The notes under the pieces were generated by a model. The model was not told the origin of the DNA. It searched no databases and saw only the letters and a list, made by a program, of their open reading frames with translations. Below are positions 1 through 12,549 of a DNA stretch of 12,549 bases, one piece after another (position 1 is the first letter of the stretch; each line of letters opens with the position of its first letter). The stretch is from a virus. Its lineage: Duplodnaviria; Heunggongvirae; Uroviricota; Caudoviricetes. The DNA is taken from IMG/VR virus record IMGVR_UViG_2541047926_000005, positions 1-12,549 of that record. One strand, given 5' to 3'. Both the position numbers and the translations under genes were made by a program.

Positions 1-1284
1 TTACTTCTTCGCCTCTGCAACCACTTTACTACCCACGCCGCGGTTATTGTATTCCCACATGCGGTTGTAGTTAGTGTCATTCAGATTGCGCTGTATTTCG
101 TCGTTATCATCTACGCTGCCGGTATTACCCGCAAACGGACGATTAGAGATCACCGCATCGGCCCACGGTTTAGCCGTGTTAAAACCTTCGTTGATGGCGC
201 TATCACGGATCACCACCTGACCGTTGGTATTGGCATCAACATCCAGCGAGCGGCCCAGTTGCGCCACACCATCACCGAAAGCATTGAAACGGCTGTTTAC
301 GGCGAGGAAACCGTAGTAAATGTTGGACAGCGTAGCCGGTGCAAACACATACGCTTCTTGCTGAGTACGTGAGTTCACCACGCGGAATTCGGTGTTATCG
401 AACACCACTGCGCCGCGACCAGAAACGATATCCACATCCCCTTCAATGTAGCTGTTGGTCACCAGCGTACGCGGCTGACGATTCGTTTCCAGACGGTTCT
501 GCACACCGCTGTTGGTGACAAAGAAGGTGTTCTGACGACCGAGAATGTTAACGTTGTTAATCTGTACCTGGTCACCATCAGTACGCAGTGCCACCGCCGG
601 ATGGTTACCTGCATCTACGCTATCGCCCAGCGTGTTTTCGATGGTCAGATTTTGCAGTTGCAGGCCATTGTTTTGTGACCAGAAGACCGCAGAGCAGAGA
701 ACACCGATACTGTCGCTGCGTTTGCTCTGGCAGCTATCGTACATATACCACGCTGGTTTACCTGGCATATATTTGCCGCGCGGGTTGACGTCGTGACGCC
801 AGTCGGCAGGGCTCATGCCACCATCAAGGGAAAGCCCAATCTTCACATCAATCGGTTTTTCACCTGTACCGTACAGAGTAATTCCACCCGGAGCGGCAGG
901 GACATATACCGTTCCCTGATACTCACCAGGCATCACGGCAATATACTGGCGCTTGTTGGTACGCTTGATAATTGCCGCATCTACCGCCGCCTGAATCGTG
1001 GTATGCGTTACACCTTGAGTGCCCGCCGGGCCGACAACAAAGTCAGGTTGCGCAGGCAGGGTAATCGGGGAAGGATTCCACGCTGCAGCACCTGGTGTCA
1101 GGGATGCAAAATAGTGTTGAGCATCGAAATTCTGCGCTTCTTTTGCCGACAGAATCGGGCGAGAAGAGGTACCAGGCGCGGTTTGATCAGAAGGACGTTG
1201 ATCGGGCGGGGTTGAGCTACAGGCGGTCAGCGTCACGCCAAAAGCCAATGCCAGCGCCAGACGGGAAACTGAAAATGTGTTCAC
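1..1284 (-). CDS. ybhC: YbhC-like outer-membrane lipoprotein (pectinesterase/CE8 beta-helix fold, putative acyl-CoA thioesterase)
   Basis: Complete 427-aa ORF; GTG start at 1284 with GGAG about 7 nt upstream; N-terminal signal peptide ending in lipobox LTAC; AVALRTDGD and DIVSG motifs typical of pectinesterase fold; lies directly outside the lambda att core, as ybhC does at attB(lambda) in E. coli. Confidence 0.8.
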   Translation of the reverse strand: MNTFSVSRLALALAFGVTLTACSSTPPDQRPSDQTAPGTSSRPILSAKEAQNFDAQHYFASLTPGAAAWNPSPITLPAQPDFVVGPAGTQGVTHTTIQAAVDAAIIKRTNKRQYIAVMPGEYQGTVYVPAAPGGITLYGTGEKPIDVKIGLSLDGGMSPADWRHDVNPRGKYMPGKPAWYMYDSCQSKRSDSIGVLCSAVFWSQNNGLQLQNLTIENTLGDSVDAGNHPAVALRTDGDQVQINNVNILGRQNTFFVTNSGVQNRLETNRQPRTLVTNSYIEGDVDIVSGRGAVVFDNTEFRVVNSRTQQEAYVFAPATLSNIYYGFLAVNSRFNAFGDGVAQLGRSLDVDANTNGQVVIRDSAINEGFNTAKPWADAVISNRPFAGNTGSVDDNDEIQRNLNDTNYNRMWEYNNRGVGSKVVAEAKK

Positions 1285-1321
1285 AGGTTGCTCCGGGCTA
1301 TGAAATAGAAAAATGAATCCG

Positions 1322-1421
1322 TTGAAGCCTGCTTTTTTATACTAAGTTGGCATTATAAAAAAGCATTGCTTATCAATTTGTTGCAACGAACAGGTCACTA
1401 TCAGTCAAAATAAAATCATTA
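1322..1421. other. attL (B-O-P') junction of a lambda-type integration: 15-bp core 1331-1345, IHF H'-like site 1371-1383, Int arm-type sites about 1392-1411
   Basis: Exact core GCTTTTTTATACTAA; left flank TGAAGCCT matches the bacterial B arm; right flank GTTGGCATTATAAAAAAGCATTGCTTATCAATTTGTTGCAACGAACAGGTCACTATCAGTCAAAAT matches the phage P' arm, with TATCAATTTGTTG (IHF consensus WATCAANNNNTTR) and tandem AGGTCACTAT / CAGTCAAAAT arm-type repeats. Confidence 0.85.
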
Positions 1422-2489
1422 TTTGATTTCAATTTTGTCCCACTCCCTGCCTCTGTCATCACGATACTGTGATGCCATGGTGTCCGACTTATGCCCGAGA
1501 AGATGTTGAGCAAACTTATCGCTTATCTGCTTCTCATAGAGTCTTGCAGACAAACTGCGCAACTCGTGAAAGGTAGGCGGATCCCCTTCGAAGGAAAGAC
1601 CTGATGCTTTTCGTGCGCGCATAAAATACCTTGATACTGTGCCGGATGAAAGCGGTTCGCGACGAGTAGATGCAATTATGGTTTCTCCGCCAAGAATCTC
1701 TTTGCATTTATCAAGTGTTTCCTTCATTGATATTCCGAGAGCATCAACATGCAATGCTGTTGGGATGGCAATTTTTACGCCTGTTTTGCTTTGCTCGACA
1801 TAAAGATATCCATCTACGATATCAGACCACTTCATTTCGCATAAATCACCAACTCGTTGCCCGGTAACAACAGCCAGTTCCATTGCAAGTCTGAGCCAAC
1901 ATGGTGATGATTCTGCTGCTTGATAAATTTTCAGGTATTCGTCAGCCGTAAGTCTTGATCTCCTTACCTCTGATTTTGCTGCGCGAGTGGCAGCGACAGG
2001 GTTTGTTGTTATATGGCCTTCAGCTATTGCCTCTCGGAATGCATCGCTCAGTGTTGATCTGATTAACTTGGCTGACGCCGCCTTGCCCTCGTCTATGTAT
2101 CCATTGAGCATTGCCGCAATTTCTTTTGTGGTGATGTCTTCAAGTGGAGCATCAGGCAGACCCCTCCTTATTGCTTTAATTTTGCTCATGTAATTTATGA
2201 GTGTCTTCTGCTTGATTCCTCTGCTGGCCAGGATTTTTTCGTAGCGATCAAGCCATGAATGTAACGTAACGGAATTATCACTGTTGATTCTCGCTGTCAG
2301 AGGCTTGTGTTTGTGTCCTGAAAATAACTCAATGTTGGCCTGTATAGCTTCAGTGATTGCGATTCGCCTGTCTCGGCCTAATCCAAACTCTTTACCCGTC
2401 CTTGGGTCCCTGTAGCAGTAATATCCATTGTTTCTTATATAAAGGTTAGGGGGTAAATCCCGGCGCTCATGACTTCGCCTTCTTCCCAT
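1419..2489 (-). CDS. int: Lambda-type integrase (tyrosine recombinase)
   Basis: 356-aa ORF beginning MGRRRSHERRDLPPNLYIRNNGYYCYRDPRTGKEF, recognised as lambda Int; catalytic region HELRSLSARLY ... HLLGHKSDTMASQYRDDRG present; 3' end abuts the P' arm; 23-nt overlap with xis as in lambda. Confidence 0.95.
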   Translation of the reverse strand: MGRRRSHERRDLPPNLYIRNNGYYCYRDPRTGKEFGLGRDRRIAITEAIQANIELFSGHKHKPLTARINSDNSVTLHSWLDRYEKILASRGIKQKTLINYMSKIKAIRRGLPDAPLEDITTKEIAAMLNGYIDEGKAASAKLIRSTLSDAFREAIAEGHITTNPVAATRAAKSEVRRSRLTADEYLKIYQAAESSPCWLRLAMELAVVTGQRVGDLCEMKWSDIVDGYLYVEQSKTGVKIAIPTALHVDALGISMKETLDKCKEILGGETIIASTRREPLSSGTVSRYFMRARKASGLSFEGDPPTFHELRSLSARLYEKQISDKFAQHLLGHKSDTMASQYRDDRGREWDKIEIK

Positions 2490-2685
2490 TTCTGATCCTC
2501 TTCAAAAGGCTACCTGTTACTGGTCGATTTAAGTCAACCTTTACCGCTGATTCGTGGAACAGATATTCTCTTCCATCCTTAACCGGAGGAGGGAATATCC
2601 TGCATTCGCGCACCCATCGACGAACTGTTTCAAGGCTTCTTGGGCGTCGCTGGCGAGCGTTCCACTCCTGAAGTGTCAAGTACAT
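2467..2685 (-). CDS. xis: Excisionase
   Basis: 72-aa ORF MYLTLQEWNARQRRPRSLETVRRWVRECRIFPPPVKDGREYLFHESAVKVDLNRPVTGSLLKRIRNGKKAKS, recognised as lambda Xis; overlaps the int start. Confidence 0.9.
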   Translation of the reverse strand: MYLTLQEWNARQRRPRSLETVRRWVRECRIFPPPVKDGREYLFHESAVKVDLNRPVTGSLLKRIRNGKKAKS

Positions 2686-2711
2686 CGCAAAGTCTCCGCA
2701 ATTACACGCAA
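2665..2711 (-). promoter_or_regulatory. pI-like CII-dependent promoter (TTGC-N6-TTGC at 2698-2711 on minus strand)
   Basis: Minus-strand TTGCGTGTAATTGC lies just upstream of the xis ATG, so the predicted transcript start falls inside xis; this matches lambda pI, which yields Int without Xis. No clear -10 hexamer, as expected for an activator-dependent promoter. Confidence 0.5.
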
Positions 2712-2712
2712 G

Positions 2713-2733
2713 AAAAAACCGCCATCAGGCGGC
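2713..2733 (-). terminator. Intrinsic terminator-like hairpin (stem CCGCC/GGCGG, loop 4 nt) followed by U6 on minus strand
   Basis: Plus strand AAAAAACCGCCATCAGGCGG; the minus-strand RNA would be GCCGCC-UGAU-GGCGG-UUUUUU. Confidence 0.4.
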
Positions 2734-2902
2734 TTGGTGTTCTTTCAGTTCTTCAATTCGAATATTGGTTACGTCTGCATGTGCTATCTGCGCCCACAGC
2801 ATCCAGTGGTTATAGCAGTCGCTGATGTTCTCGGCTTCGATAACTCTGTTGAATGGTTCTCCATTCCATTCACCTGTAACTCGGAAGTGCATTTATCATC
2901 GC

Positions 2903-2930
2903 CATAAAACAAAACTCGCCGTAGCGAGTT
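2903..2930 (-). terminator. Intrinsic terminator-like hairpin (7-bp stem AACTCGC/GCGAGTT, loop CGTA) with U-rich tail on minus strand
   Basis: Perfect 7-bp inverted repeat at 2913-2930; minus-strand downstream sequence is UUGUUUUAUGG. Confidence 0.45.
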
Positions 2931-2932
2931 CA

Positions 2933-2961
2933 GATAAAAGAAAACCCGCACTCGGCGGGTT
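2933..2961 (-). terminator. Intrinsic terminator-like hairpin (7-bp stem AACCCGC/GCGGGTT, loop 5 nt) with U-rich tail on minus strand
   Basis: Perfect 7-bp inverted repeat at 2943-2961; minus-strand downstream sequence is UUUUCUUUUAU; tandem with the preceding hairpin. Confidence 0.5.
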
Positions 2962-3240
2962 CGCATTCGTTCAAATTGCGTTTACTTCTTGGCGTTCTGT
3001 TCATCCATATCGATATACCATGGGTTGCTTCCCTTGGGCATGTTTAACGACTGCTCGCGATAGTATCTGATGCGCTCCATGAAATACTCGCGTGAGTGCT
3101 CAGGTTGCTCTCATGATACCTGCTCAGTGATAACAGGTATGTTAAGGCGCTCTCTGTACTCCATGCCTGATGCTGCAAGGTCAACGTTTACCTTGTTCTG
3201 TTTTTCTTTCGATTTCTCGGCGATGTTATGCCTGACATTG

Positions 3241-3525
3241 TCAACCCGCCTCCTTCTGAACATAACGGTTATAAATCAGTCCCTGAGGGCCATAAGGAAG
3301 CGGGATGTGCAACTCCTCTGGTTCAGAAACTATCCATTCCCCGGCCATCTCCGCTGGAGAGGTAATGATAAGTTGTTTGCTAATAAAAGGACCACTCCTC
3401 TCAACAACAAGCTTACCATCTTCATTAATAAAAGCTTGGATGTCAGGTGTGCTTCCACACTTGGTGATGCAGCGTTTGAACATTTTGTGTCCCCCCATTT
3501 TATGGACGGGGTAATTATAACACAT
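3241..3525 (-). CDS. Small hypothetical protein with N-terminal Cys/His cluster, in the ea8.5 position of lambda (Ea8.5-like, tentative)
   Basis: 94-aa ORF (lambda ea8.5 is 93 aa by recollection); N-terminus MCYNYPVHKMGGHKMFKRCITKCG has H-x4-H-x5-C-x3-C spacing; no SD at 3525. Alternative start at 3483 has a purine-rich GGGGGGA upstream. Follows an 84-bp AT-rich spacer. Confidence 0.5.
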   Translation of the reverse strand: MCYNYPVHKMGGHKMFKRCITKCGSTPDIQAFINEDGKLVVERSGPFISKQLIITSPAEMAGEWIVSEPEELHIPLPYGPQGLIYNRYVQKEAG

Positions 3526-3609
3526 TGAAATATAGTAATATTTGACGTAGATTTCTTTTGATCTATAAGCGATTTTTTAATGCTTTTAAGTTATAAATAC
3601 TTGTTTTCA

Positions 3610-4185
3610 TCACCCATCTTGCTGCGGTGCTACTATTGAAAAGTACTCACACCCTTTAGCCCAAATAGTTTTGATAGTTGTCCAACTGACTGGAACCTTG
3701 ATTTCGATTCTTCCGCTGCCGTCACAAGTTTCGCAATCATCATCACCAAAGCATTCCGGGCAGCTTATAAACGTAGTTTCTGAAAATTCACCGGATAGCA
3801 CACCCTTAGCGCCGTTCTCAGCGGTTAGTTTCTTCGGCACTATAACCCAACCATCCGGAGTTACCGGAGAATTGCCATTTATATCGAAGTTTGGCTCTGC
3901 GTCCTGAACCAGGAGGATGTAACCATTCTTGGCAGTATCAAGTTCTAACGCCTCGGTGACGGTACCGAAATAGCGATTACCTAAATCCGCATCACAAGTG
4001 CTTACATCAATGGAAACCTCCATGCCTTCGATTAATTCTGGCAAGTTGTAAGTTTGGCTTACAGGTTCTGCTCCCAGTGATGCCAGTGCAATTCGTGCCA
4101 GTTCCATTTGTTCGCCACGAGTAAGCCCGTTTTCAAGCGGATTTTTAATGAACAATTCAATACGTTCTTTGGTAATAGTGGTCAT
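3610..4185 (-). CDS. Hypothetical protein with C-terminal DnaJ-type zinc-finger motif (CxxCxG ... CxxCxGxG)
   Basis: 191-aa ORF; SD AAGGA 7 nt upstream of ATG 4185; only 10 nt downstream of the preceding gene's stop; C-terminal CPECFGDDDCETCDGSG. Confidence 0.7.
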   Translation of the reverse strand: MTTITKERIELFIKNPLENGLTRGEQMELARIALASLGAEPVSQTYNLPELIEGMEVSIDVSTCDADLGNRYFGTVTEALELDTAKNGYILLVQDAEPNFDINGNSPVTPDGWVIVPKKLTAENGAKGVLSGEFSETTFISCPECFGDDDCETCDGSGRIEIKVPVSWTTIKTIWAKGCEYFSIVAPQQDG

Positions 4186-4195
4186 TTGTTAGTCC

Positions 4196-5056
4196 TTAAA
4201 CTGCTAGTTGCAATTGCATTTCAAAGCGGTCGCGTTGTTCACAATACGCAAGAGAACCAGGGCTATTGTGTGCCTCAATCCGTTCTACCATTAATGCTGC
4301 GCGTGTCTCTTTACTTGCAGGTGCATAAGCCCCAGACCAGGCTTTATCAATACCGATGTTTCGAGCGACGTTCGTACTATCTGCGCTGGCTAAGGGTAAT
4401 TTTGTGAATATCAGCGGATTTAACATGCGCAATCCATGTAGTTTCGTAACCGGCTGACCATGCCCATCAACAATGTGACGAATCAGGTCTTTCATTCTGG
4501 CTACCGCAAGAGTTGGGCGCTTTACGTCATAGTCGCCACAACTACCGATAGCCACTCGCGGAAACTCATTGCACAAATGAATAAATCGCTCGTCACTTTC
4601 ATTCATGTGCCACACTGGAACGCCAGCTAGTTTTCCGTGAGCCCGGACTTCAGCCAGGAAAGCATCGGTGGCTGGGGTGTCAACACGGATGCTGTCGCGC
4701 AAGATGAAAAATGCATTGAGCATTCCAGTCTCTGGCACTTCATCCTGATGCTTCTCATACGCATCAAGAGCCTTCATCATCTCATGTCCGAATGGTTGAG
4801 GGTGCTCAGCCTTCAGCCCAGCATTCTCCGCCGCCAGCGCTGAAAACTTCTCGTGTGCCAACTTAACAGCCGAATCAGCCTGCTTAATTGACTCAATCGC
4901 TTTCTGGTGGTCTTCGTACAGAGCCGAAATCTTGGCCTCCGCTTCAGCAAATTTACGCACCAGATATTCAGCGTTTGTTTCGTTAACCTTTAAATCTCGT
5001 GGGAAGCATTTACCTTTCAGAAAACCATCCATCTCAATTAGTGACATTTGTTTCAT
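4196..5056 (-). CDS. Hypothetical protein: N-terminal coiled-coil-like region plus C-terminal globular domain
   Basis: 286-aa ORF; ATG 5056 overlaps the upstream stop (ATGA); GGAG upstream; helical heptad-like N-terminus ([30 protein letters not shown]); C-terminal motifs AIGSCGDYD and LHGLRMLNP, unrecognised. Confidence 0.7.
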
Positions 5057-5217
5057 TTCTTCCCACTCCGCAACATTGCATTCAGATATTTGTTGTCATT
5101 AACAGAACCGAAACTCTTTCTCTTAAGCAATTCCTCTCTCGATGGCATTGGCTTTACGCGTTGGCGAATAATCATTTCTGCCGGAAGAATGCTGGGATTG
5201 TATGCAAGTCCTCTCAT
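5053..5217 (-). CDS. Small hypothetical protein (about 54 aa), translationally coupled to both neighbours
   Basis: ATG at 5217 with SD GAGGAA 6 nt upstream (alternative ATG at 5235 overlaps the upstream TGA); its stop TGA overlaps the ATG of the 286-aa gene (ATGA). Confidence 0.4.
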
Positions 5218-5227
5218 GGTAAATTCC

Positions 5228-5524
5228 TCAGTCATTACTGATAGCGCCATAGCGTGAGCGGTAATTACGCAGGCGCGGGTCGATATATTCAGGGAAGTGG
5301 GTATATGTGGCTTTGCGGAATGGTCGGATTGATGTCTGGTAAATTCGCTCGCGTTCTTCTTTCTCTGCAAGCCATATACAGTGGCGAAATTCCTTTTCCT
5401 CTTTCGTTTCCTGCGGTAGCGACATTATCAGGTCGTAGTTTTTCCTGAATTTATCCAGCACCTCCGATACGGAATTGCCGGAACAGCGGCGCGCGTCATC
5501 CGCACCATACAGAGGCGCTGGCAT
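5228..5524 (-). CDS. Hypothetical 98-aa protein immediately downstream of the erf/ssb module
   Basis: SD AAGGA about 8 nt upstream of ATG 5524; begins 24 nt after the ssb stop. Confidence 0.65.
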
Positions 5525-5547
5525 AATGGAATCCTTATTTTGCTAAT

Positions 5548-5931
5548 TTAGAAGGGAATTGAATCGTCGTATTCAGGATGGTTTTGATGATTGCTACTTT
5601 GTTGCTGTTGGCTGTTTCCTGAAGTTGCAAATCCAATCTTTGCATTCAGTAATTCAAGAGTGATTGATTGACCATTTTGCCCCTGATAAACATCAACCCT
5701 GATGTTTTCTCCGGTAATTTCCACAATGCCACCTTCAACAAGAACACTACGGTAGTAATCCGCTTGCGCTCCCGGCTTGGCAAATACAACGGCGCTGTAG
5801 TTTGTCCATTCTTTCTTTTTTGTCTGGCGATCGTAATACTGAACGCCAGCACGGATGTTGAATCCGATATTTTCCCCGGCCTGAAACTCTCTTGCGGGCT
5901 TGTTTAGTCTTACAGTAATCGAATGTGCCAT
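5548..5931 (-). CDS. ssb: Phage single-stranded DNA-binding protein (SSB-like)
   Basis: 127-aa product from ATG 5931 (TAATG overlap with the erf stop); OB-fold-like core (SAVVFAKPGAQADYYRSVLVEGGIVEITG), Gln/Ser-rich linker, and acidic C-terminal tip DDSIPF matching the SSB tail consensus DDDIPF. The ORF-track N-terminal extension to 6021 overlaps erf and is rejected. Confidence 0.7.
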   Translation of the reverse strand: MAHSITVRLNKPAREFQAGENIGFNIRAGVQYYDRQTKKKEWTNYSAVVFAKPGAQADYYRSVLVEGGIVEITGENIRVDVYQGQNGQSITLELLNAKIGFATSGNSQQQQSSNHQNHPEYDDSIPF

Positions 5932-6536
5932 TAAGCAGCCGCTCCTTCTAATTCGTCTCGTCTGATGTTGTAAACGTCCTGCGCTTTGTGCTGCTCCGGT
6001 GTTCCTTCGAGCATCTTCCACGCTTTGGCGAACGCCTGTTTAAGCTCTTCCACGGTGTTTTTCTGCATTGCTGCGTCAGTGAATGCTTTTAGAACCTGTT
6101 CAGGTGTAGGTGATGGTTTTGATTGCTTTGCTACTGCGTTCTGCTGATGTTTATGCTCGTCTGTATCTGCATCTTTCGCATCATCAATGCCGAACAAACT
6201 ATTGAGGCAATACTTGCGTGCATAAGAGCTTGTAGCTCCCGTAACTTGTGCAGAATCCATTCCTTTCTTGCTTTCTTCCTCTCGTGCAAGAGCGGTTGCC
6301 GTATGACTGTTTTCGCCATCGGTAATAGTTGCCGTGGCTTTCACGTAATACCGATCACCAATCAACACAACTTCATCGCTGATTGATAAAAACAGGCCAT
6401 TCAGTAACGGCTTAACGCCTTCAAGAATATCTTCGCAGCTTCTGTATTTATATTTACCGAATGAGTTGTACTGATTTTTTGGCGCGTTCAGATTCTCCTG
6501 AATAGCTGCCAGTCTTGCGTAAAATTCTTTGCTCAT
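5931..6536 (-). CDS. erf: Erf-family single-strand annealing recombinase
   Basis: 201-aa product from ATG 6536 (MSKEFYARLAAIQENLNAPKNQYNSFGKYKYRSCEDILEG ... GATSSYARKYCLNSLFGIDD), recognised as close to P22 Erf; the start at 6536 leaves a 10-nt gap to the upstream small ORF, whereas the 6566 start would overlap it. Confidence 0.85.
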   Translation of the reverse strand: MSKEFYARLAAIQENLNAPKNQYNSFGKYKYRSCEDILEGVKPLLNGLFLSISDEVVLIGDRYYVKATATITDGENSHTATALAREEESKKGMDSAQVTGATSSYARKYCLNSLFGIDDAKDADTDEHKHQQNAVAKQSKPSPTPEQVLKAFTDAAMQKNTVEELKQAFAKAWKMLEGTPEQHKAQDVYNIRRDELEGAAA

Positions 6537-6546
6537 ATGTTTGTTC

Positions 6547-6716
6547 TCAGAATGGACATGGCCCAAGGAAATAACGCTGGTTTAATACTTCGACTCGGGA
6601 CAAATTAAGGCATACCCGCATTCCTTCGCGGTCACCATTATGGCGATACCAGAGAGCTTTCTGCGTGTACATGCGTCTCTGTAACTTGCTCTCCTTCACT
6701 GTGGTTGCAAGTGACA
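6547..6716 (-). CDS. Small hypothetical protein (56 aa) upstream of erf (arf-position ORF)
   Basis: Strong SD AAGGAG 6 nt upstream of ATG 6716; ends 10 nt before the erf start; overlaps an alternative 52-aa frame (6640-6796) that is ATGA-coupled to the kil stop. Confidence 0.4.
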
Positions 6717-6792
6717 TGAATATCTCCTTCGTTACCGATTAAATCTTTCATCTGACGAATGAATTCTTCGTCTGACCAGTTATCTGTAAAAC

Positions 6793-6945
6793 TCATTTCC
6801 TGCGATACCACGGAAGGTTGATAGCTGATTTCATCGCTTTATTTGCTTCAAGCCACATTTTGGAATCACCAATAAATCTGGCTATTACTGCTTTGTTTTG
6901 TGCTGCACGAAGCATCTGGTGATTGATGGTTATTTCATTGCGCAT
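6793..6945 (-). CDS. kil: Kil-like small protein (host-killing / cell-division inhibitor family, tentative)
   Basis: Unlisted 54-aa ORF MRNEITINHQMLRAAQNKAVIARFIGDSKMWLEANKAMKSAINLPWYRRK; SD GGAGG 5 nt upstream; start overlaps the 3' end of cIII as kil does in lambda; central FIGD-KM motif resembles lambda Kil as I recall it. Confidence 0.55.
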   Translation of the reverse strand: MRNEITINHQMLRAAQNKAVIARFIGDSKMWLEANKAMKSAINLPWYRRK

Positions 6946-7064
6946 AACGCCTCCAGTTGTTTCTTTGCTGCTCTGATTAATTGTTTAACTCGGCGTGATA
7001 ATTCAGATTCGAGCGGGTAGAAAGCGGACATGACGCCGCTACCCGCGAGCTGAAAGTGCATCAT
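6930..7064 (-). CDS. cIII: CIII-like protein (FtsH inhibitor that stabilises CII)
   Basis: 44-aa product MMHFQLAGSGVMSAFYPLESELSRRVKQLIRAAKKQLEALCAMK from ATG 7064 with SD AAGGAG 6 nt upstream; amphipathic core ESELSRRVKQLIRAAKKQLEAL parallels the lambda CIII core ESLLERITRKLRDGWKRLIDIL; the ORF-track 61-aa version has a spurious N-terminal extension. Confidence 0.75.
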   Translation of the reverse strand: MMHFQLAGSGVMSAFYPLESELSRRVKQLIRAAKKQLEALCAMK

Positions 7065-7139
7065 GGGTAACTCCTTATATTTGATTGCATAACGAAAATG
7101 CCTCTCGTGAAGCATTATTGGTATGCGGTAAAGCCGCGC

Positions 7140-7508
7140 TCAGGCGGCTTTGATAGTCATATCATCTGAATCAAATATTCCTGATGTGTCGATATCGGTA
7201 ATTCTTATTCCTTCGCTACCATCCATTGGAGGCCATCCTTCCTGACCATTTCCATCATCCCAGTCGAACTCACAAACAACACCATATGCATTTAAGTCTT
7301 TCGAAATTGCTATAAGCAGAGCATGTTGCGCCAGCATGATTAATACAGCATTTAATACAGCGCCGTGTTTATTGAGTCGGTATTTAGAGTCTGACCAGAA
7401 ATTATTAATCTGGTGAAGTTTTTCCTCTGTCATTACGTCATGGTCGATTTCAATTTCTATTGATGCTTTCCAGTCGTAATCAATGATGTATTTTTTGATG
7501 TTTGACAT
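7140..7508 (-). CDS. ea10: Ea10-like protein
   Basis: 122-aa ORF, same length as lambda Ea10; N-terminus MSNIKKYIIDYDWKASIEIEIDHDVMTEEKLHQINNFW recognised from lambda ea10; SD GAGGA upstream; sits upstream of cIII as in lambda. Confidence 0.7.
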   Translation of the reverse strand: MSNIKKYIIDYDWKASIEIEIDHDVMTEEKLHQINNFWSDSKYRLNKHGAVLNAVLIMLAQHALLIAISKDLNAYGVVCEFDWDDGNGQEGWPPMDGSEGIRITDIDTSGIFDSDDMTIKAA

Positions 7509-7526
7509 CTATTCATATCCTCATAG

Positions 7527-7554
7527 ATAAAAAATCGCCCTCACACTGGAGGGC
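7527..7554 (-). terminator. Intrinsic terminator (stem GCCCTC/GAGGGC, 6-nt loop) plus GAUUUUUU on minus strand, about 20 nt upstream of ea10
   Basis: Plus strand AAAAAATCGCCCTCACACTGGAGGGC; minus-strand RNA hairpin followed by U6. Confidence 0.55.
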
Positions 7555-7647
7555 AAAGAAGATTTCCAATAATCAGAACAAGTCGGCTCCTGTTTAGTTA
7601 CGAGCGACATTGCTCACATAGCAGACTCGTGAATCTGCTATAGGTGC

Positions 7648-7833
7648 TTATTCGCTTGGTGGTTCAGGTAATTTCACGTACTCAACACCCCACATATTTT
7701 CTACCCAGGAAAGCCACTCCCATGAATTCAGTCTTTGTGACCACATTCGCCATCTCCCATTCAATTGGGTAATCTCCGTCTCGTCTCCCGGCCTGACGAA
7801 TGTGCAATTAGACTTCGTTATTCTTACCTTCAT
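7648..7833 (-). CDS. Small hypothetical protein (61 aa, Trp-rich C-terminal half)
   Basis: ATG 7833 overlaps the upstream stop (TGATG); GGAGGAG upstream; product MKVRITKSNCTFVRPGDETEITQLNGRWRMWSQRLNSWEWLSWVENMWGVEYVKLPEPPSE. Confidence 0.5.
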   Translation of the reverse strand: MKVRITKSNCTFVRPGDETEITQLNGRWRMWSQRLNSWEWLSWVENMWGVEYVKLPEPPSE

Positions 7834-8129
7834 CACTCCTCCCCAAGAGCCTTGCTGATGGCTGCAAGACCTTTATTAACAGCTCCATACCATTCTGGAT
7901 ATGTTGTCGTTGTTCTATTTTTGGATTGCTTAAGTAATAACTGAAGTGCTTCGAGAAGGTCAGGTGCTGCCGCTATTAGATTGGCATCTTCAATACATTT
8001 AACTTCCTCACAGATTGCAATATACGAACGCCAGCCTGCGCCATTTTCAAGTGAGTCTGCCTGGATGATTTTAATCTCATCGCCATCCATCATTATTTCC
8101 CACTTACCTTCAGTACCTTTAAATTCCAT
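7833..8129 (-). CDS. Hypothetical 98-aa protein
   Basis: SD GAGG 6 nt upstream of ATG 8129; lies directly downstream of a terminator; contains IAAAPDLLEALQLL helix; family not recognised. Confidence 0.65.
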   Translation of the reverse strand: MEFKGTEGKWEIMMDGDEIKIIQADSLENGAGWRSYIAICEEVKCIEDANLIAAAPDLLEALQLLLKQSKNRTTTTYPEWYGAVNKGLAAISKALGEE

Positions 8130-8149
8130 GTTAGCCTCTGTTGTTTATG

Positions 8150-8177
8150 CCAAAAATAAAGGCCGACTATGCGGCCT
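8150..8177 (-). terminator. Intrinsic terminator (stem AGGCCG/CGGCCT, 6-nt loop) plus UUUAUUUUU on minus strand, overlapping the stop codon of the 207-aa gene
   Basis: Plus strand CAAAAATAAAGGCCGACTATGCGGCCT; hairpin and U-tract fall immediately 3' of the 8167-8790 gene. Confidence 0.55.
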
Positions 8178-8790
8178 CGGAAGGAAGTCCAATCATCTTA
8201 TTCAAATCTTCTACCCGTAAAGCAGGAAGTGCTGTACTTGCTTTATCTGCTTCTTTTGGTAGCAACTCTTTGCTTTCAGGCCAAACCTCAATAAGTCGCT
8301 TAACTGTTGTGACTGAGTTTAAAGCAGCCCATACATTTGATTCGATATCCTTTTTCTTGGCTTCAAGTTTTTGTTGTAATGAGCAGATTTCATCAAACCT
8401 TTTTGTTATTTCGTGCTCTGCGTCAAACATGCATTTATCTTTTATCGGAGTAGGGAGAAATATATCTTCGCCGTTGCCGTCTTTCCCATATGAATGCCAT
8501 CCAACCCTTCTGCCAGATACAGTCAGATAAATTGAAGTAGAACGAAAATCGTATGAGTAAAATGAACATCCCATCTTGCCAAGTTCTTCACTTATAGCTA
8601 CCAACTTGGATGATAACTGATCCACTTCCTCAGTTTTCTTTTTACCGCCAAACGCAATAACTCTGGCGTCAAGTGCAAGCTGGTTCTTTAACTTTGTTAC
8701 TTCTTCAAGCTCAGTGAAAACCCCAGACTTAATTAAAGCGTTACGAGCGATTTTCTCTTTCATTCTCGTAGTTAAGCGGATTGATGACAT
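8167..8790 (-). CDS. Hypothetical soluble 207-aa protein with its own terminator (accessory gene in the ral/sieB region)
   Basis: ATG at 8790 with SD GAGAGG 7 nt upstream (ORF-track start at 8805 is a TTG inside the SD); charged coiled-coil-like termini; no TM segments; family not recognised. Confidence 0.7.
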   Translation of the reverse strand: MSSIRLTTRMKEKIARNALIKSGVFTELEEVTKLKNQLALDARVIAFGGKKKTEEVDQLSSKLVAISEELGKMGCSFYSYDFRSTSIYLTVSGRRVGWHSYGKDGNGEDIFLPTPIKDKCMFDAEHEITKRFDEICSLQQKLEAKKKDIESNVWAALNSVTTVKRLIEVWPESKELLPKEADKASTALPALRVEDLNKMIGLPSEAA

Positions 8791-8847
8791 ATTAATTCCT
8801 CTCAAATAAGTGGTTTGCTGCGAAAGTAAATACGCTTAAGTTACCTG

Positions 8848-8985
8848 TTATTTATCCCACCAAGTTCCGTATCTATCTATCCAGTTACACCAATCGTCGA
8901 CACTCCATTTTGTTGTGTCGCATTTTGGCAATTGGCATGAATATCTACCTTCTTTGTAAAGTCGGCGTTTGACTTTCTTGGGCAT
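8848..8985 (-). CDS. Small Cys/Trp-rich protein (45 aa)
   Basis: Unlisted ORF MPKKVKRRLYKEGRYSCQLPKCDTTKWSVDDWCNWIDRYGTWWDK; strong SD GAGGTGA 6 nt upstream of ATG 8985. Confidence 0.45.
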   Translation of the reverse strand: MPKKVKRRLYKEGRYSCQLPKCDTTKWSVDDWCNWIDRYGTWWDK

Positions 8986-9171
8986 GGCTCACCTCAATCG
9001 TAATAAGCTGGAATTGATTTTCCGCGTTGCTTCTGGCGGCCTGAACAAGTCACACCCATTTCACTGCGTGGCTTGCGGTAGTAAAGATTGTGCCTGTCTT
9101 TTAACCACATCAGGCTCGGTGGTTCTCGTGTACCCCTACAGCGAGAAAAATAGTAAAATCCTCTCACCCCC

Positions 9172-9534
9172 TTATTTTGTCAGGGGGATATCTCCTTCAG
9201 TTCTGACCATTCGCCTTAATACTTTCCTTAAGTCGATGTAAAGTTGAAGGTCTCCATTTGCTGCGGCATCAGCCATTTTTTGCCTGACAAGCAGTAATGT
9301 TTCATACGGCTCAATAAGAATATCGTCATGAGTAATTAGGTGAAGCGTTGCCGCATCAACTATTCCTAGAGCTGCGCCAAGTATCAAAAATTCCCTGCTA
9401 TTTTTGTCGCATGAGGAGATAAGCGTATTTAGCGCATACCTAATATTCTTTATAGCTGTTGTTAATGCTGCAATTTCTTCTATGGCGTCTTCTTCAATGA
9501 GATTTTTAAGCTCATATTTTTCTTCCTGACCCAT
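9172..9534 (-). CDS. Hypothetical 120-aa protein, first leftward gene after the organisational break
   Basis: ATG 9534 with SD GAGGT about 5 nt upstream; the ORF-track extension to 9618 lacks an SD and has a different composition; no Arg-rich motif, so not an N-like antiterminator. Confidence 0.6.
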   Translation of the reverse strand: MGQEEKYELKNLIEEDAIEEIAALTTAIKNIRYALNTLISSCDKNSREFLILGAALGIVDAATLHLITHDDILIEPYETLLLVRQKMADAAANGDLQLYIDLRKVLRRMVRTEGDIPLTK

Positions 9535-9569
9535 AATTACCTCGCCGTCAGTTGTTTTGATTTCCGGTA

Positions 9570-9601
9570 GCCTGCCGCGTAAATGGCTACATTTGGCAGG
9601 C
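9570..9601. promoter_or_regulatory. Nested inverted repeat GCCTGCC-n18-GGCAGGC (inner AAATG/CATTT) in the divergent intergenic region; candidate operator or RNA structure
   Basis: Perfect 7-bp arms at 9570-9576 and 9595-9601; overlaps a weak sigma70-like promoter for the plus-strand gene (TTGATT 9557-9562, 17-nt spacer, TAAATG 9580-9585). Confidence 0.3.
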
Positions 9602-9647
9602 AAACACTTCCACTGCATTCATCAACTTTCTTGCAGCGAAGGCTAAT

Positions 9648-11123
9648 GTGCTGAAGTATGACCCTGATCAGTTACGACAGGATTTGTCTTCACAGGGCGG
9701 CGTAAACTTAGTTAATGGTGCCGTTAGTTATGATAATCTGGGTAGTGAATACGGGCTGAATCTCATAGGTGAATATGCCGAAATATCAAATTTACGGGAT
9801 GTAGCACCATCTGTAGGTGATAAGGTCATGGTGAAGGAGCACACCACAGGACGTGGTTTGTTAGGTGGTGGTGTTTTCGTAGCTGTATCAGGGAATTACA
9901 CAGATGATGATGGAGTATTTATTTCGTCTGCTTCCCCATCTGTATATTGGGTACGAAGTGGCGCAGGTAGTCATGTTATAATTGAATGGTTCGGTGGCAA
10001 ATCTGAAGATCAGAGTTTAGATCATTCTCCTATCCTGGCTAACGCACAGTTATATGAAGGTCGATCGATAGAGTTTCAGTACGGAAGCTACTACTTTACA
10101 CCTCCATGCGTCATCAAGCCGTCTATGCATTTCATCGGCAGCGGTGGCGCTAAAACATTCTGGCGAAACAAAAATATAAATGCGGACGCCACGGTGTTCT
10201 TCGCCAACACCGGGAGTGCATCTTCTTGGGCTGAAAATACAGTGTTCGAGCGCATTCATTTTAGTAATGACTCCAGCTCTACCCCCAGCAATGCGGCTAT
10301 ATCACTGCAACATGCGAGTCTATTTAAATTTGATAAGTGCGGTTTTTACAAGGCACCGATTTACGCATCAGATTTACACTGGGTTACTTGGAATGGCTGC
10401 GTATTAATCGACAGTATGACCACAATTAACGAGGCCAGTGTATCACCAGCATTTCCTATTAACGAGGGTCCAGCATTTATCGACTGCTATATGGTCAGAT
10501 CCCCTATAGATATAACTGATGTTGCCGATTTGAGACTAGTAGGCACTTCGATGTTTTACGGACCTTACGGCATAAAGTCAACGACACACCGACCTTTAGA
10601 TTCAGGGGCGGATTCTCGGGGATTACCGGTATTTATAACTAATAGCGTAATTGACAATATTGACGGTTATTGCTTGGACCTTAACAGAGTGGCGGTAGGA
10701 ACTATCACAAACAGCCTGTTCTCTGGAGGAAGAGTGTCAGGGACTCCAGCAATACGTGCAACAGAGGTTTTGGGACTTAGCTTTAACGCCAATGTTATCC
10801 ATTTCGCCGGTCAGGAATGCATGTACCTCTATGACGTGCAGAATATATTAATGGGTAATAACCAATTCAGTAGTTGCAACGGTTATGCAATAAAAGCAGA
10901 ATATTGTCGTAATGTTACTGTGAATGGTAATTTCTTCGGTAACCAGAAAGTCACTGGCGGATGGAATACATGCACTGGAGGGATAAACTTTAACACCAAC
11001 GATAACCTTGCATGGATAATAACTGGCAACACTTTCGTAAGTGTACCCGGAGTTGTAGGGCAGACAGGGTCTGGAAGAACAGTTTATACTGCCACAGGTA
11101 ATTCAGGTTTGTCAGATAATTAA
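9648..11123 (+). CDS. Tailspike-like right-handed beta-helix protein lacking a head-binding domain (putative polysaccharide-degrading or -binding)
   Basis: 491-aa ORF with GTG start at 9648 (SD GAAGG 5 nt upstream); N-terminus LKYDPDQ matches the conserved junction motif of P22-family tailspikes as I recall it, and the upstream in-frame codons read A-N-V; body has beta-helix-like repeats (NVTVNGNFF, NILMGNNQF, LSFNANVIH, ITNSLFSGG); no signal peptide. Confidence 0.75.
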   Translation: MLKYDPDQLRQDLSSQGGVNLVNGAVSYDNLGSEYGLNLIGEYAEISNLRDVAPSVGDKVMVKEHTTGRGLLGGGVFVAVSGNYTDDDGVFISSASPSVYWVRSGAGSHVIIEWFGGKSEDQSLDHSPILANAQLYEGRSIEFQYGSYYFTPPCVIKPSMHFIGSGGAKTFWRNKNINADATVFFANTGSASSWAENTVFERIHFSNDSSSTPSNAAISLQHASLFKFDKCGFYKAPIYASDLHWVTWNGCVLIDSMTTINEASVSPAFPINEGPAFIDCYMVRSPIDITDVADLRLVGTSMFYGPYGIKSTTHRPLDSGADSRGLPVFITNSVIDNIDGYCLDLNRVAVGTITNSLFSGGRVSGTPAIRATEVLGLSFNANVIHFAGQECMYLYDVQNILMGNNQFSSCNGYAIKAEYCRNVTVNGNFFGNQKVTGGWNTCTGGINFNTNDNLAWIITGNTFVSVPGVVGQTGSGRTVYTATGNSGLSDN

Positions 11124-11133
11124 CAATATATGC

Positions 11134-11190
11134 ACTCACATGACAATATATGTATAACAGTTGCCGTATATTTGTCATGTGAGTTGTTTT
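11134..11190. terminator. Bidirectional terminator-like hairpin between convergent genes (13-bp perfect stem 11134-11146 / 11172-11184, 25-nt loop)
   Basis: ACTCACATGACAA and its reverse complement TTGTCATGTGAGT; followed by TGTTTT on the plus strand and an AT-rich tail on the minus strand; flanked by 10-bp direct repeat ACAATATATG (11123-11132 and 11143-11152). Confidence 0.5.
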
Positions 11191-11196
11191 AATATA

Positions 11197-12549
11197 TTAA
11201 GCTCTCTTTATTAGAACTGGAGATATAATGATGATTGGTAGTGCTTTTACCAGATAAACCAGCGGGAGAACTAACTCAGCTCTACATGAAAAAATGAATC
11301 CTGGTAAAATGGCCATTGCAGATACAATAAGCATCTTATTTCCTGATGACAGCAACTTATTTATCAATAGAATAATTGACAATGAATACGCTATCATTAC
11401 CATTGGCCCAAATGCACCGCCAAGAATCATGGATTCAAGCGGAAGTGATGATGATAAAGCTATTCCAGATGAATGACTGCCAAGGGCAATATCCGTATAT
11501 ACTTGCGATATCGGCGTGACACCGTTTATATTAAATCCAAGCAGGTTAAAGAATTGTAATATAATATCTTCCTGATTAAAATTGTGGGAATACCAAAAGT
11601 CAGATATATTGAAAGTACTTTGCAACCCAGATATTATTGATGCTATAGAATCAAGAACAATTAGTAAATAGCTAAAGAAATACATGTTGTATCCTTCTCT
11701 ATAATATGAAACCAAAGAAAGTACAACAAATAGAGATGATATTACTACAGGGCTTGTTATTTTTCTGAAGTATTTCTTTGCATTATTTATATCAACAAAC
11801 ATCATTATTATAAAAATTGAAATCAAGGAAGAAAAAGCCTTCCCTCTAATGCCTATAATTATGTCTGAGAACAATATGAATATTGCAATTGCTGTAATTA
11901 TCTTACTCCTTGAAAAGGCTATAGCCATGAGCGATAAAATTACTGAAAACCCACTTAAGAACCTTATTGCGAAAGGCACTGACGACACAAGATCGTCGTT
12001 TGATAGATATATTGCAAGATGCCCAAGACCTGAATTTGATATGAATGAGTAATATGTGTATATTTTATATAGTTGAGCTATCGCTACAAACAAAAATATA
12101 AATACAAAAAAATTACTTAGCCTTAGATTAATTAAAGGATTTGTTTTTGTTTGTCTGAATGACTTTCCAAGAAAGTAAATAACCATAGATGAAAGAACGA
12201 TGCATAGCATCATTCCTTTAAATGCAGGAGTGGAGTCGTTTACCATAAACAAATAACAGGCAGGTATTCCAAGAAGTAATGAATAACAAAAGAAATATAT
12301 AGTTCCAATAGATAATTCATTCATTCTTTTTATATACGATAACACCAAGCATGAAGTATACAGTGGAGCGATAAAACAAAACAATATATCATATACACCT
12401 GATTGAACCCCAGATATCATTAGCAATGATATAAATACGATTATAGACAGTAGAGCAAACATAAGAAATATATACGGCAATGTATTAACTATCTGGTTTG
12501 GAGTCCATATATAACCAGTGTTACTGCCTGAAATGTATTTTCTAATCAT
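11197..12549 (-). CDS. Polytopic inner-membrane protein, GtrC/Wzy-like (candidate O-antigen modifying enzyme: serotype-specific glycosyltransferase or O-antigen polymerase)
   Basis: 450-aa ORF with many hydrophobic helices; markedly AT-rich codon usage unlike the rest of the window; starts at the last base of the window (ATG 12549-12547), so the true start may lie beyond; convergent with the tailspike-like gene. Confidence 0.75.
   Translation of the reverse strand: MIRKYISGSNTGYIWTPNQIVNTLPYIFLMFALLSIIVFISLLMISGVQSGVYDILFCFIAPLYTSCLVLSYIKRMNELSIGTIYFFCYSLLLGIPACYLFMVNDSTPAFKGMMLCIVLSSMVIYFLGKSFRQTKTNPLINLRLSNFFVFIFLFVAIAQLYKIYTYYSFISNSGLGHLAIYLSNDDLVSSVPFAIRFLSGFSVILSLMAIAFSRSKIITAIAIFILFSDIIIGIRGKAFSSLISIFIIMMFVDINNAKKYFRKITSPVVISSLFVVLSLVSYYREGYNMYFFSYLLIVLDSIASIISGLQSTFNISDFWYSHNFNQEDIILQFFNLLGFNINGVTPISQVYTDIALGSHSSGIALSSSLPLESMILGGAFGPMVMIAYSLSIILLINKLLSSGNKMLIVSAMAILPGFIFSCRAELVLPLVYLVKALPIIIISPVLIKRA

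Follow-up and report, generated by a model that had tools for sequence, protein, structure and literature searches.

A 5'-truncated tailspike gene fused to a remnant of N in a relic prophage at the lambda attachment site

The P22 tailspike chains read ...YIANVLKYDPDQYS at residues 100–114, the Sf6 tailspike hinge reads ...FQNVLKYDPDQF, and the crystallised P22 head-binding fragment 1LKT ends within this hinge motif. The same hinge, NVLKYDPDQLRQDL, is found in full-length 596-aa tailspikes of E. coli prophages (WP_338389178.1 in GF66.2, P0015 in 1-110-08_S3_C2), which also share their beta-helix body and stop codon with the gene studied here. In the intact GF66.2 protein the head-binding domain PF09008 spans residues 1–113 (E 1.6e-63), and the gene has a convergent wzy neighbor, as does ours. 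The receptor-binding beta-helix is homologous, at ~23–27% identity, to that of CBA120 TSP3 (ORF212; PDB 5W6F, 6NW9), an O77-specific tailspike glycosidase (PMC10408124) whose catalytic carboxylates are Glu362 and Asp426, plus Asp383 (PMC6517402).

We analyzed a 12,549-nt stretch of DNA (the window; IMG/VR record IMGVR_UViG_2541047926_000005, positions 1 to 12,549) in which an earlier note, made from the sequence alone, had described a free-standing 491-aa tailspike-like gene beginning at the P22-family hinge. The hinge had been identified correctly, as the P22 chains attest. The note left two options, the 3' part of a tailspike gene remaining after deletion or recombination, or a domain-shuffled, independently translated module. 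Our analysis favors the former.

Reading frame, junction and relic prophage

An ORF check of the window confirmed the 491-aa frame at 9648..11123 on the plus strand, with a GTG start. An in-frame stop lies upstream at 9558–9560, and the 29 codons between this stop and 9648 contain no ATG, as had been noted, and no GTG or TTG; the ORF therefore cannot be longer, which rules out a larger gene with an overlooked start. Codons 9639–9647 encode K-A-N, followed by VLKYDPDQ, and a GAAGG at 9638–9642 is placed 5 nt 5' of the GTG. In RefSeq the ORF is a normal CDS (WP_024238472.1, 'right-handed parallel beta-helix repeat-containing protein').

The alignment of the upstream DNA with tailspike genes, which had been proposed as a check, maps the breakpoint to 9643/9644, in codon 104. 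Homology to lambdoid phages (97–98%) ends at 9644 inside N, and homology to tailspike genes (99.2–100%) begins at 9643; the Megablast boundaries agree, at 9644 for the left-hand matches and 9643 for the right-hand ones. The parental sequences at the junction, N antisense GAAGGCT|TCCGAG and tailspike TTTTCCT|AATGTG, have only the dinucleotide CT in common. Two unrelated genes are thus cut at a single junction: N keeps 35 of 90 amino acids, lacking its Arg-rich motif, start codon, nutL and pL, and the tailspike gene keeps its 3' five-sixths (492/596 codons). Intact N is known in HK620, CFSAN064035 and E9, and the intact tailspike in GF66.2 and PSS-11.

The junction also accounts for the apparent start of the gene. 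The usable Shine–Dalgarno sequence (SD) and GTG that had been noticed at the breakpoint are a fusion accident and no designed feature, the SD being antisense N and the GTG the internal Val106 codon. Gene callers report the 491-aa protein only because this GTG now follows the SD-like GAAGG from antisense N. Coordinates of all features are collected in Table 1.

Table 1. Features of the window, with the basis of each assignment.
Feature	Position	Strand	Description and basis
ybhC	1..1284	-	Host gene, gal side of the lambda attachment site; 427-aa pectinesterase-family product in record L003, annotated ybhC in E. coli E9
attL core GCTTTTTTATACTAA	1331..1345	+	Exact pattern search
Lambda-type integrase	1419-2489	-	356 aa; Pfam Arm-DNA-bind_1/Phage_integrase in L003
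Excisionase	2467-2685	-	72 aa; Pfam Exc in L003
Early-left (pL) operon genes, pL gone	2725..9534	-	Gene calls and Pfam in L003, PHROG matches
N' remnant	9537..9644	-	Last 35 codons and stop of the 90-aa antiterminator N; alignment to N of HK620 and CFSAN064035
SD and start	9638..9650	+	Fortuitous; GAAGG from N antisense, 5-nt spacer, GTG is the Val106 codon of the intact tailspike
Deletion junction	9643..9644	.	Dinucleotide CT; three- and four-way DNA alignments, Megablast boundaries
'tailspike	9645..11123	+	Codons 105-596 of a 596-aa P22-type tailspike gene; hinge, linker, TSP3-like beta-helix, C-terminal part
Catalytic codons	E273 10464-10466, D294 10527-10529, D336 10653-10655	+	HMMER alignment to 5w6f/6nw9
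O-antigen polymerase (Wzy-like)	11197..12549	-	450 aa; lysogenic-conversion gene of the cassette, convergent with the tailspike fragment

The ORF starts with VLKYDPDQ, part of the NVLKYDPDQ hinge common to P22, Sf6 and 20 enterobacterial tailspikes. Since the DNA is 99–100% identical to intact tailspike genes from 9643 on, the motif is inherited and not a chance match. The earlier identification of ANVLKYDPDQ as the hinge holds for NVLKYDPDQ but not for its first residue: intact copies of the gene read FPNVLKYDPDQ, and the GCT codon of the 'A' is N-antisense DNA. The claim that the N-terminal domain was lost precisely at a domain-swapping hotspot is likewise only approximately right, the break being in codon 104 and off the exact domain boundary. 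Relative to the P22 Y108/D109 boundary the ORF begins 4 residues early; it retains residues 105–113 of the Pfam Head_binding model (1–113 in the intact protein), and the break falls ~30 nt upstream of the point where tailspike genes diverge in the DNA alignment.

The junction lies within an 11.8-kb relic prophage, measured from attL to attR, with lambda att cores at the ybhC/ybhB site. The 15-mer GCTTTTTTATACTAA is what we take to be the lambda att core; its second copy, attR, lies outside the window, at position 13494 of L003, before ybhB-bioA. The relic keeps int, xis and the early-left genes (theta-like, DUF2737, Abc2 anti-RecBCD, Erf, Kil, CIII, DUF2528, Nmad5 and hkaQ-like, the last at 9172–9534), a region 97–98% identical to HK620/HK629 and E. 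coli prophages, and lacks immunity, replication, lysis and virion genes. The two breakpoints are 27.7 kb apart in E. coli E9, whose intact P22-like prophage occupies the same site, and 27.3 kb apart in HK620. On its 3' side the tailspike fragment is followed by convergent wzy, attR and ybhB, an arrangement shared with HK620, E9 and GF66.2 and in keeping with the place of P22-type tailspike genes at the end of the late operon; the late genes upstream have been lost. The wzy gene is labelled 'O-antigen polymerase' in both GF66.2 and PSS-11; its match to Pfam O-ag_pol_Wzy is weak (E 0.002, below cutoff).

The fragment is 99.2% identical at the DNA level to the GF66.2 allele (WP_338389178.1, 596 aa), and 1220/1220 nt (9643–10862) are identical to the allele of the att-lambda prophage of E. 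coli 1-110-08_S3_C2 (L059), where the head-binding 5' part is intact; this same-site prophage carries gtrABC in place of wzy. There are 6 synonymous and 5 non-synonymous substitutions relative to GF66.2 and none relative to L059. With so few changes, most of them older than the deletion, constraint and neutrality cannot be told apart; dN/dS was accordingly set aside as a test of constraint.

Every occurrence of the exact 491-aa protein is in a collinear copy of one and the same relic, at 99.95% identity or more (nine contigs carry the protein, and the alignment covered six places), and a search of 5,426 complete E. coli genomes did not turn up the junction. In GTDB species representatives, DNA encoding VLKYDPDQ gave 44 matches, 20 of them true tailspikes from Enterobacterales, each with head-binding sequence directly upstream (20/20). 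The other 24 come from unrelated phyla and, with nothing resembling a head-binding domain upstream, look fortuitous. Thus, a gene boundary at the hinge was found in 0/20 other hinge-bearing enterobacterial species. Several candidate N-truncated homologs did not survive inspection: P0037 (504 aa, Salmonella) has an MSSGCG... anchor in frame upstream and is a start-call artifact, and P0061–P0064 and P0066 are either cut off by a contig end or simply called shorter.

Beta-helix body and expression signals

The beta-helix signatures noticed at the outset were borne out by a Pfam Beta_helix match (E 4e-8), by a match to PHROG 7173 'tail spike protein' (E 1.5e-185) that covers profile positions 106–626 only, and by the predicted structure. 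The AlphaFold2 monomer model has a pLDDT of 84.7 and is nearly all beta from residue 140. Its best Foldseek match is CBA120 TSP3 (TM 0.71, E 8e-17), and the top matches are tailspikes and depolymerases. A phmmer search aligned ORF residues about 105–462 with the TSP3 D3 beta-helix (E 9e-26). No P22, Sf6 or HK620 body appeared among the PDB sequence matches at E <= 1, in agreement with the early impression that the P22 endorhamnosidase body is not recognizable here; kinship with the P22, Sf6 and HK620 catalytic bodies was dropped on this ground. The Pfam search found no PF09008 head-binding domain (~110 aa) in the ORF.

By HMMER alignment, E273, D294 and D336 are the equivalents of CBA120 TSP3 Glu362, Asp383 and Asp426, and all three are invariant in 31 homologs. 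Because these TSP3-type catalytic residues are kept, the product would probably fold and be active. If translated, it would be expected to behave like the laboratory ΔN tailspikes, as a soluble beta-helix glycosidase acting on O-antigen. Attachment to virions is impossible within this element, since it has neither a head-binding domain nor virion genes.

A crude consensus search, which is a weak test, found no sigma70-like site on the plus strand at 7906–9648 (~1.7 kb upstream), and an equally weak consensus-only scan found no canonical terminator pattern between the tailspike fragment and wzy. The native drivers of the gene in intact relatives (late promoter region, Q, immI region) are absent from the relic. 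Transcription against the leftward operon had been taken to fit a function in the lysogen; the plus orientation is simply the ancestral direction of the late operon. The N-terminus VLKYDPDQLRQDLSSQGG lacks the hydrophobic segment of a signal peptide, and on direct inspection neither the basic n-region nor the hydrophobic core of an export signal is seen in VLKYDPDQLRQDLSSQGGVNLVNGAVSYDNLG. With an open frame, a well-spaced SD/GTG, intact catalytic residues and a RefSeq CDS, translation from spurious or read-through transcripts is conceivable. Nevertheless, we infer that the fragment is functionless and that any expression is too low to matter.

Origin of the fragment

We propose, with a probability of about 0.9, that the ORF is a gene fragment, produced when a P22-like (Lederbergvirus-type) prophage that occupied the E. 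coli lambda attachment site underwent a single internal deletion. The deletion would have begun midway through the leftward N gene and ended in codon 104 of the rightward tailspike gene, an interval of about 27–28 kb in intact relatives. Lost with it would have been pL, the immunity region, Q, the genes for replication and lysis, and every virion gene as far as the tailspike head-binding domain. The ends would then have been joined by illegitimate recombination at the 2-nt CT microhomology. Tailspike codons 105–596 would still be open because the event is recent, as the 99–100% identity to intact alleles suggests. The first option of the earlier note is thereby upheld: there is one junction, ~27 kb are missing, and full-length copies at 99–100% identity exist elsewhere. 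This is ordinary prophage decay and no new free-standing gene; the wzy neighbor may be the reason why this end of the prophage persists.

The same structure could have had two parents, an att-lambda prophage already in place and a P22-like phage, newly arriving or a second resident, with the tailspike-wzy cassette. We consider this route unlikely; it would combine an illegitimate left crossover inside N with a homologous right crossover in the att arm. The cassette shares 99.2% identity with its counterpart in GF66.2, an argW/intS prophage, and the homology runs on past wzy into a ~100-nt fragment of the intS 3' end, which shows that the cassette has moved between phage backbones. The att-lambda prophage whose 5' allele is identical has gtrABC instead of wzy. 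However, the intact att-lambda prophage of E9 has the intS fragment too, and the mosaicism is therefore older than the truncation. A one-step deletion covers every feature with fewer events, and either path would leave the same non-functional relic.

Far less probable still is a preferred breakage site at the hinge, one cut by a phage homing endonuclease, for instance, or a hotspot of recombination. The break in codon 104, so close to the point of tailspike divergence, and an HNH endonuclease gene directly 5' of the tailspike gene in GF66.2 would fit such a site. Under the single-deletion model the position of the break is a coincidence, with a prior probability of roughly 3% that a random endpoint inside the gene falls within a few codons of the hinge, and it counts against that model. 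Yet none of the 20 species representatives has a truncated copy, and the one other short homolog, P0037, proved spurious, leaving one event with an unrelated N partner and 2 nt of microhomology, so that use of a hotspot is not demonstrated.

We regard it as very improbable that the ORF is a functional, self-translated ΔN tailspike, a soluble O-antigen-binding or depolymerase module made in the lysogen. Once cells have lysed, such a module might sense O-antigen or shorten it; it might also serve as a decoy for related phages. The open ORF with an SD 5 nt from the GTG, the conserved catalytic E273/D294/D336 and the confident beta-helix model speak for it, as do the folding and in vitro activity of P22, Sf6 and HK620 tailspikes that lack their N-terminus. 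It would also accord with the reported remodeling of the O-antigen of a lysogen population by a prophage-made tailspike (PMC4413052). Against this, the fusion itself supplied the SD and start codon, there is no promoter-like site upstream and no signal peptide, the boundary is confined to one clonal relic and absent from all 20 other hinge-bearing species, and N was destroyed by the same event, as an accident would predict. The domain-shuffled module offered as the second option of the earlier note is not supported either, on the same points: a single clonal context, a by-product SD/GTG and the lack of a promoter-like site.

The most speculative version, which we rate slightly lower again, has the accidental fusion giving a translated ΔN tailspike, a soluble trimeric O-antigen glycosidase, or the DNA serving as a receptor-binding cassette for capture by phages. 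If true, low-level transcription through the dead early-left region and the fortuitous SD/GTG would yield a glycosidase that trims the O-antigen of neighboring cells after lysis; as a cassette, the DNA would be captured by incoming P22-like phages through the wzy/att arm and the ~27 nt of homology retained at the hinge. In both cases nature would have made its own version of the laboratory ΔN tailspike.

Relation to known tailspikes and prophage remnants

On the single-deletion reading the scientific consequence is small and the practical point mainly one of annotation: WP_024238472.1 is a 5'-truncated tailspike remnant fused to a dead N and not an ordinary protein. The locus is a clean case of prophage decay in which the wzy conversion end and the int/xis end are kept and the core is lost, and the same receptor-binding module is seen on at least three N-terminal anchors and two integration modules. 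The fragment encodes almost exactly a hand-made ΔN construct, making it a possible natural template for expressing a TSP3-like putative depolymerase.

Compared with the full-length E. coli prophage tailspikes, the window copy lacks codons 1–104 (PF09008) and the upstream late genes and is fused to antisense N. The receptor-binding module itself is shared more widely: the tailspike of Salmonella phage FSL SP-031 is 72.7% identical over the whole 491 aa, and related prophage tailspikes of Salmonella, Enterobacter and Xenorhabdus are 71–75% identical over the same length. These proteins have complete anchors (PF09008, PF18668 or an MSSGCG... N-terminus) that the window ORF lacks, and CBA120 TSP3 differs in its anchor, which consists of the Ackermannviridae head domains D1/D2. 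In the laboratory ΔN constructs (P22 TSP 109–666, Sf6 and HK620 ΔN) the head-binding domain was removed at essentially the same hinge; those constructs are engineered and expressed from vectors, whereas the window ORF is a natural deletion by-product with no evident promoter. As a whole, the element is of the same kind as other defective lambdoid or P22-like prophage remnants of E. coli, bounded by att sites and retaining int/xis, early-left genes and a conversion gene.

The junction and the start of the ORF

Megablast against phages and 5,426 complete E. coli genomes divides the window in two. The part up to 9644 is early-left DNA of lambdoid type and shares 97-98% identity with HK620, HK629 and many prophages; from 9643 on it matches, at 99.2% identity, the 'phage tailspike protein' gene of E. 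coli GF66.2 and PSS-11 and their convergent 'O-antigen polymerase' gene. None of the 5,426 genomes spans the junction. In the alignments, N antisense reads ...CTTGCAGCGAAGGCT|TCCGAG..., the intact tailspike ...TTCTATTTTCCT|AATGTGCTGAAG..., and the window ...CTTGCAGCGAAGGCT|AATGTGCTGAAG...; the dinucleotide CT is all that the two parents have in common. The left parent is the antiterminator gene N, whose last 35 codons remain (N'), without the start codon, Arg-rich RNA-binding motif, nutL and pL. The tailspike parent on the right encodes 596 aa (Pfam Head_binding at residues 1-113) and is broken in codon 104.

The GTG that opens the 491-aa ORF is the internal Val106 codon of the intact tailspike. 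A longer gene with a missed start was sought and does not exist: upstream extension fails because an in-frame stop is followed by 29 codons without ATG, GTG or TTG. The codons preceding the GTG encode K-A-N, and the product begins VLKYDPDQ. The earlier note rightly took ANVLKYDPDQ for the P22-family hinge: a PDB sequence search finds the motif in tailspike chains of P22 (...YIANVLKYDPDQYS) and Sf6 (...YFQNVLKYDPDQF); 1LKT, the crystallised P22 head-binding fragment, terminates inside it. The 'A' of ANV in the window is not tailspike DNA. Since the intact protein reads FPNVLKYDPDQ and the break falls in codon 104, this 'A' and the Shine-Dalgarno (SD) sequence are N-antisense DNA, and the agreement with P22 IANV is coincidental.

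Features of the window and of related loci
Feature	Position	Strand	Remark
att core, left	1331-1345		
int with xis	1419-2685		ORFs intact
Theta-like ORF	3111-3263	-	small, early-left; DNA polymerase III theta match (HolE-like, PF06440)
Nmad5-family gene	8167-8790	-	putative nucleotide modification; phrog_1965; HK620 has sieB-like hkaP here
Apparently non-coding, ~380 nt	8791-9171		matches HK620 hkaP region in part only
N'	9537-9644	-	
In-frame stop	9558-9560	+	
SD, GAAGG	9638-9642	+	5 nt from GTG
ORF	9648-11123	+	GTG start
Wzy-like O-antigen polymerase	11197-12549	-	450 aa; prophage gene
Identity to 1-110-08_S3_C2 tailspike	9643-10862		L059 10127-11346
gtrA/gtrB/gtrC-type module	L059 11436-14295		
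intS-end homology	L003 12903-13284		past window right end
intS-end homology	L002 14908-15288		GF66.2
intS-end homology	L012 1384-1467		
att core, right	L003 13494		relic contig
HNH endonuclease gene	L002 11167-11625	-	GF66.2
P0037	L013 ~7662-9515		Salmonella
Citrobacter amalonaticus hinge	L024 5508-5531	-	NZ_JBALIF010000002.1

Origin of the element and position of the break

The exact 491-aa protein is RefSeq WP_024238472.1, 'right-handed parallel beta-helix repeat-containing protein [Escherichia coli]', present on nine contigs. Six places were retrieved as loci; all six share an identical 100-nt junction and are collinear with the window at >=99.95% identity. The longest contig runs from the host left flank as ybhJ - ybhC - attL core - int - xis - early-left genes (theta-like, DUF2737, Abc2, Erf, Kil, CIII, DUF2528, Nmad5, hkaQ-like) - N' - truncated tailspike - wzy - attR core - ybhB - bioA - bioBFCD - uvrB. 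The 15-bp lambda att core occurs as a direct repeat, with copies 11.8 kb apart. The element lacks cI, cII and pL. With intact int and xis ORFs and both cores kept, it might still be able to excise, provided that Int and Xis are expressed or supplied.

In E. coli E9 this site is occupied by a P22-like prophage that looks intact and has the same gene order, and in which 27.7 kb (cI, cro, replication, nin, Q, lysis, terminase, portal, coat, ejection proteins, immI, tailspike 5' end) separates the equivalents of the two breakpoints; the distance in HK620 is 27.3 kb. Both also have the convergent polymerase-like gene 3' of the tailspike gene. From exactly 9643, the window is 100% identical over 1220 nt to the tailspike gene of a P22-like prophage that E. 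coli 1-110-08_S3_C2 carries at att-lambda; the head-binding 5' part of that copy is intact. All this fits one deletion inside a P22-like prophage at att-lambda that removed a region measuring ~27 kb in intact relatives; illegitimate recombination at the 2-nt microhomology would account for the joint. Orientation against the leftward operon, once read as a sign of lysogen function, loses that meaning: the + strand is the ancestral late-operon direction.

The 1-110-08_S3_C2 tailspike (P0015, 539 aa) has a scrambled 3' end (...NILMGNNWQHFRRC...) where the gtr-type module stands in for wzy. Its 5' end is intact and the relic copy is 5'-truncated; thus, two lineages have each clipped the same tailspike gene, one at either end. 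Homology of the relic to GF66.2 (argW/intS prophage) runs beyond wzy into the last ~100 nt of intS, and apparently this fragment is also present in E9, where it has a pseudo-CDS annotation. This remnant is a mosaic scar and shows movement of the tailspike-wzy cassette among phages whose integrases differ. The predicted Wzy-like protein has a weak Pfam match (E 0.002, under cutoff) and no PHROG match; its gene is probably the one whose retention matters to the host.

The head-binding domain was thought to have been lost precisely at the domain-swapping hotspot. The break is near the hinge and not exactly at it: it precedes by ~30 nt the divergence of tailspike genes with different specificities (after ...GATCAGTT) and by 4 residues the P22 108/109 domain boundary. 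A random endpoint in a 1.8-kb gene would have a ~3% chance of falling <=10 codons from the hinge. A hotspot mechanism might explain this position; nothing here supports it. When GTDB species-representative genomes were scanned for VLKYDPDQ-coding DNA as a recurrence test, head-binding sequence lay directly upstream in 20/20 true enterobacterial tailspike loci. Coincidence is the economical reading, because there is one clonal event and the partner sequence is unrelated.

An HNH endonuclease gene lies directly upstream of the intact GF66.2 tailspike gene, close to whose 5' end it could favour breaks or gene conversion. Salmonella P0037 (504 aa), considered as a second short homologue, is a start-call artefact: the start of this annotated beta-helix protein was placed at an internal position, with an in-frame ~110-aa MSSGCG... 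anchor upstream, and the true gene encodes a complete tailspike of siphovirus type. The Citrobacter amalonaticus copy, with stop codons in its head-binding region and just 142 open codons past the hinge, is an independently decayed pseudogene.

The receptor-binding body and its possible activity

Pfam reports Beta_helix only, plus NosD slightly under its curated cutoff, and PHROGs assigns the ORF to phrog_7173 'tail spike protein' (E 1.5e-185), covering only profile positions 106-626 of 626. Among sequenced phages, Salmonella phage FSL SP-031 comes closest (72.7% identity). CBA120 TSP3 (5W6F/6NW9, E 9e-26) is the sole significant solved relative by sequence; P22, Sf6 and HK620 bodies are absent from these PDB matches, in keeping with the earlier note, which saw no obvious similarity to the P22 endorhamnosidase. 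An AlphaFold2 model built from 31 homologues (pLDDT 84.7, pTM 0.84) is a long beta-helix and, with the Pfam match, bears out the proposed fold; Foldseek ranks TSP3 first (TM 0.71), then other tailspikes and depolymerases. TSP3 catalysis uses Glu362 and Asp426, with Asp383 close by (PMC6517402). These align with E273, D336 and D294 of the ORF, invariant in 31/31 homologues. Elsewhere, the body occurs only within longer proteins with an N-terminal anchor: the P22-type head-binding domain PF09008 (596-597 aa; E. coli, Salmonella, Enterobacter, Xenorhabdus), a PF18668-type anchor or an MSSGCG...-type N-terminus.

We regard the ORF as a non-functional relic (probability about 0.9). The deletion took the elements that natively drive tailspike transcription (late promoter region, Q, immI region), a consensus scan of the + strand over 7906-9648 found no sigma70-like site, and the product's N-terminus has no signal-peptide-like segment. 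Over 1220 nt the ORF is identical to the 1-110-08 allele, and 6 synonymous and 5 non-synonymous changes set it apart from GF66.2. It is still open because the fragment has scarcely diverged from intact alleles, and the open frame is therefore no evidence of selection. Known deltaN constructs and the conserved catalytic residues suggest that the product, if translated, should behave as laboratory deltaN tailspikes do: it should be soluble, probably a trimer and competent for catalysis, but should not bind a virion. That the fusion is translated to give a soluble depolymerase, or serves incoming phages as a recombination cassette, strikes us as highly improbable. RefSeq annotates the relic fragment like an ordinary protein.

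Modular exchange of anchor and receptor-binding domains is well documented for tailspikes (PMC10408124), and the present case, though not described before, belongs to a known kind; no novel type of system is involved. The ORF shows homology to P22-type tailspikes and lacks their defining N-terminal feature; its body groups with CBA120 TSP3-type glycosidase modules, and the element as a whole is a typical defective prophage.
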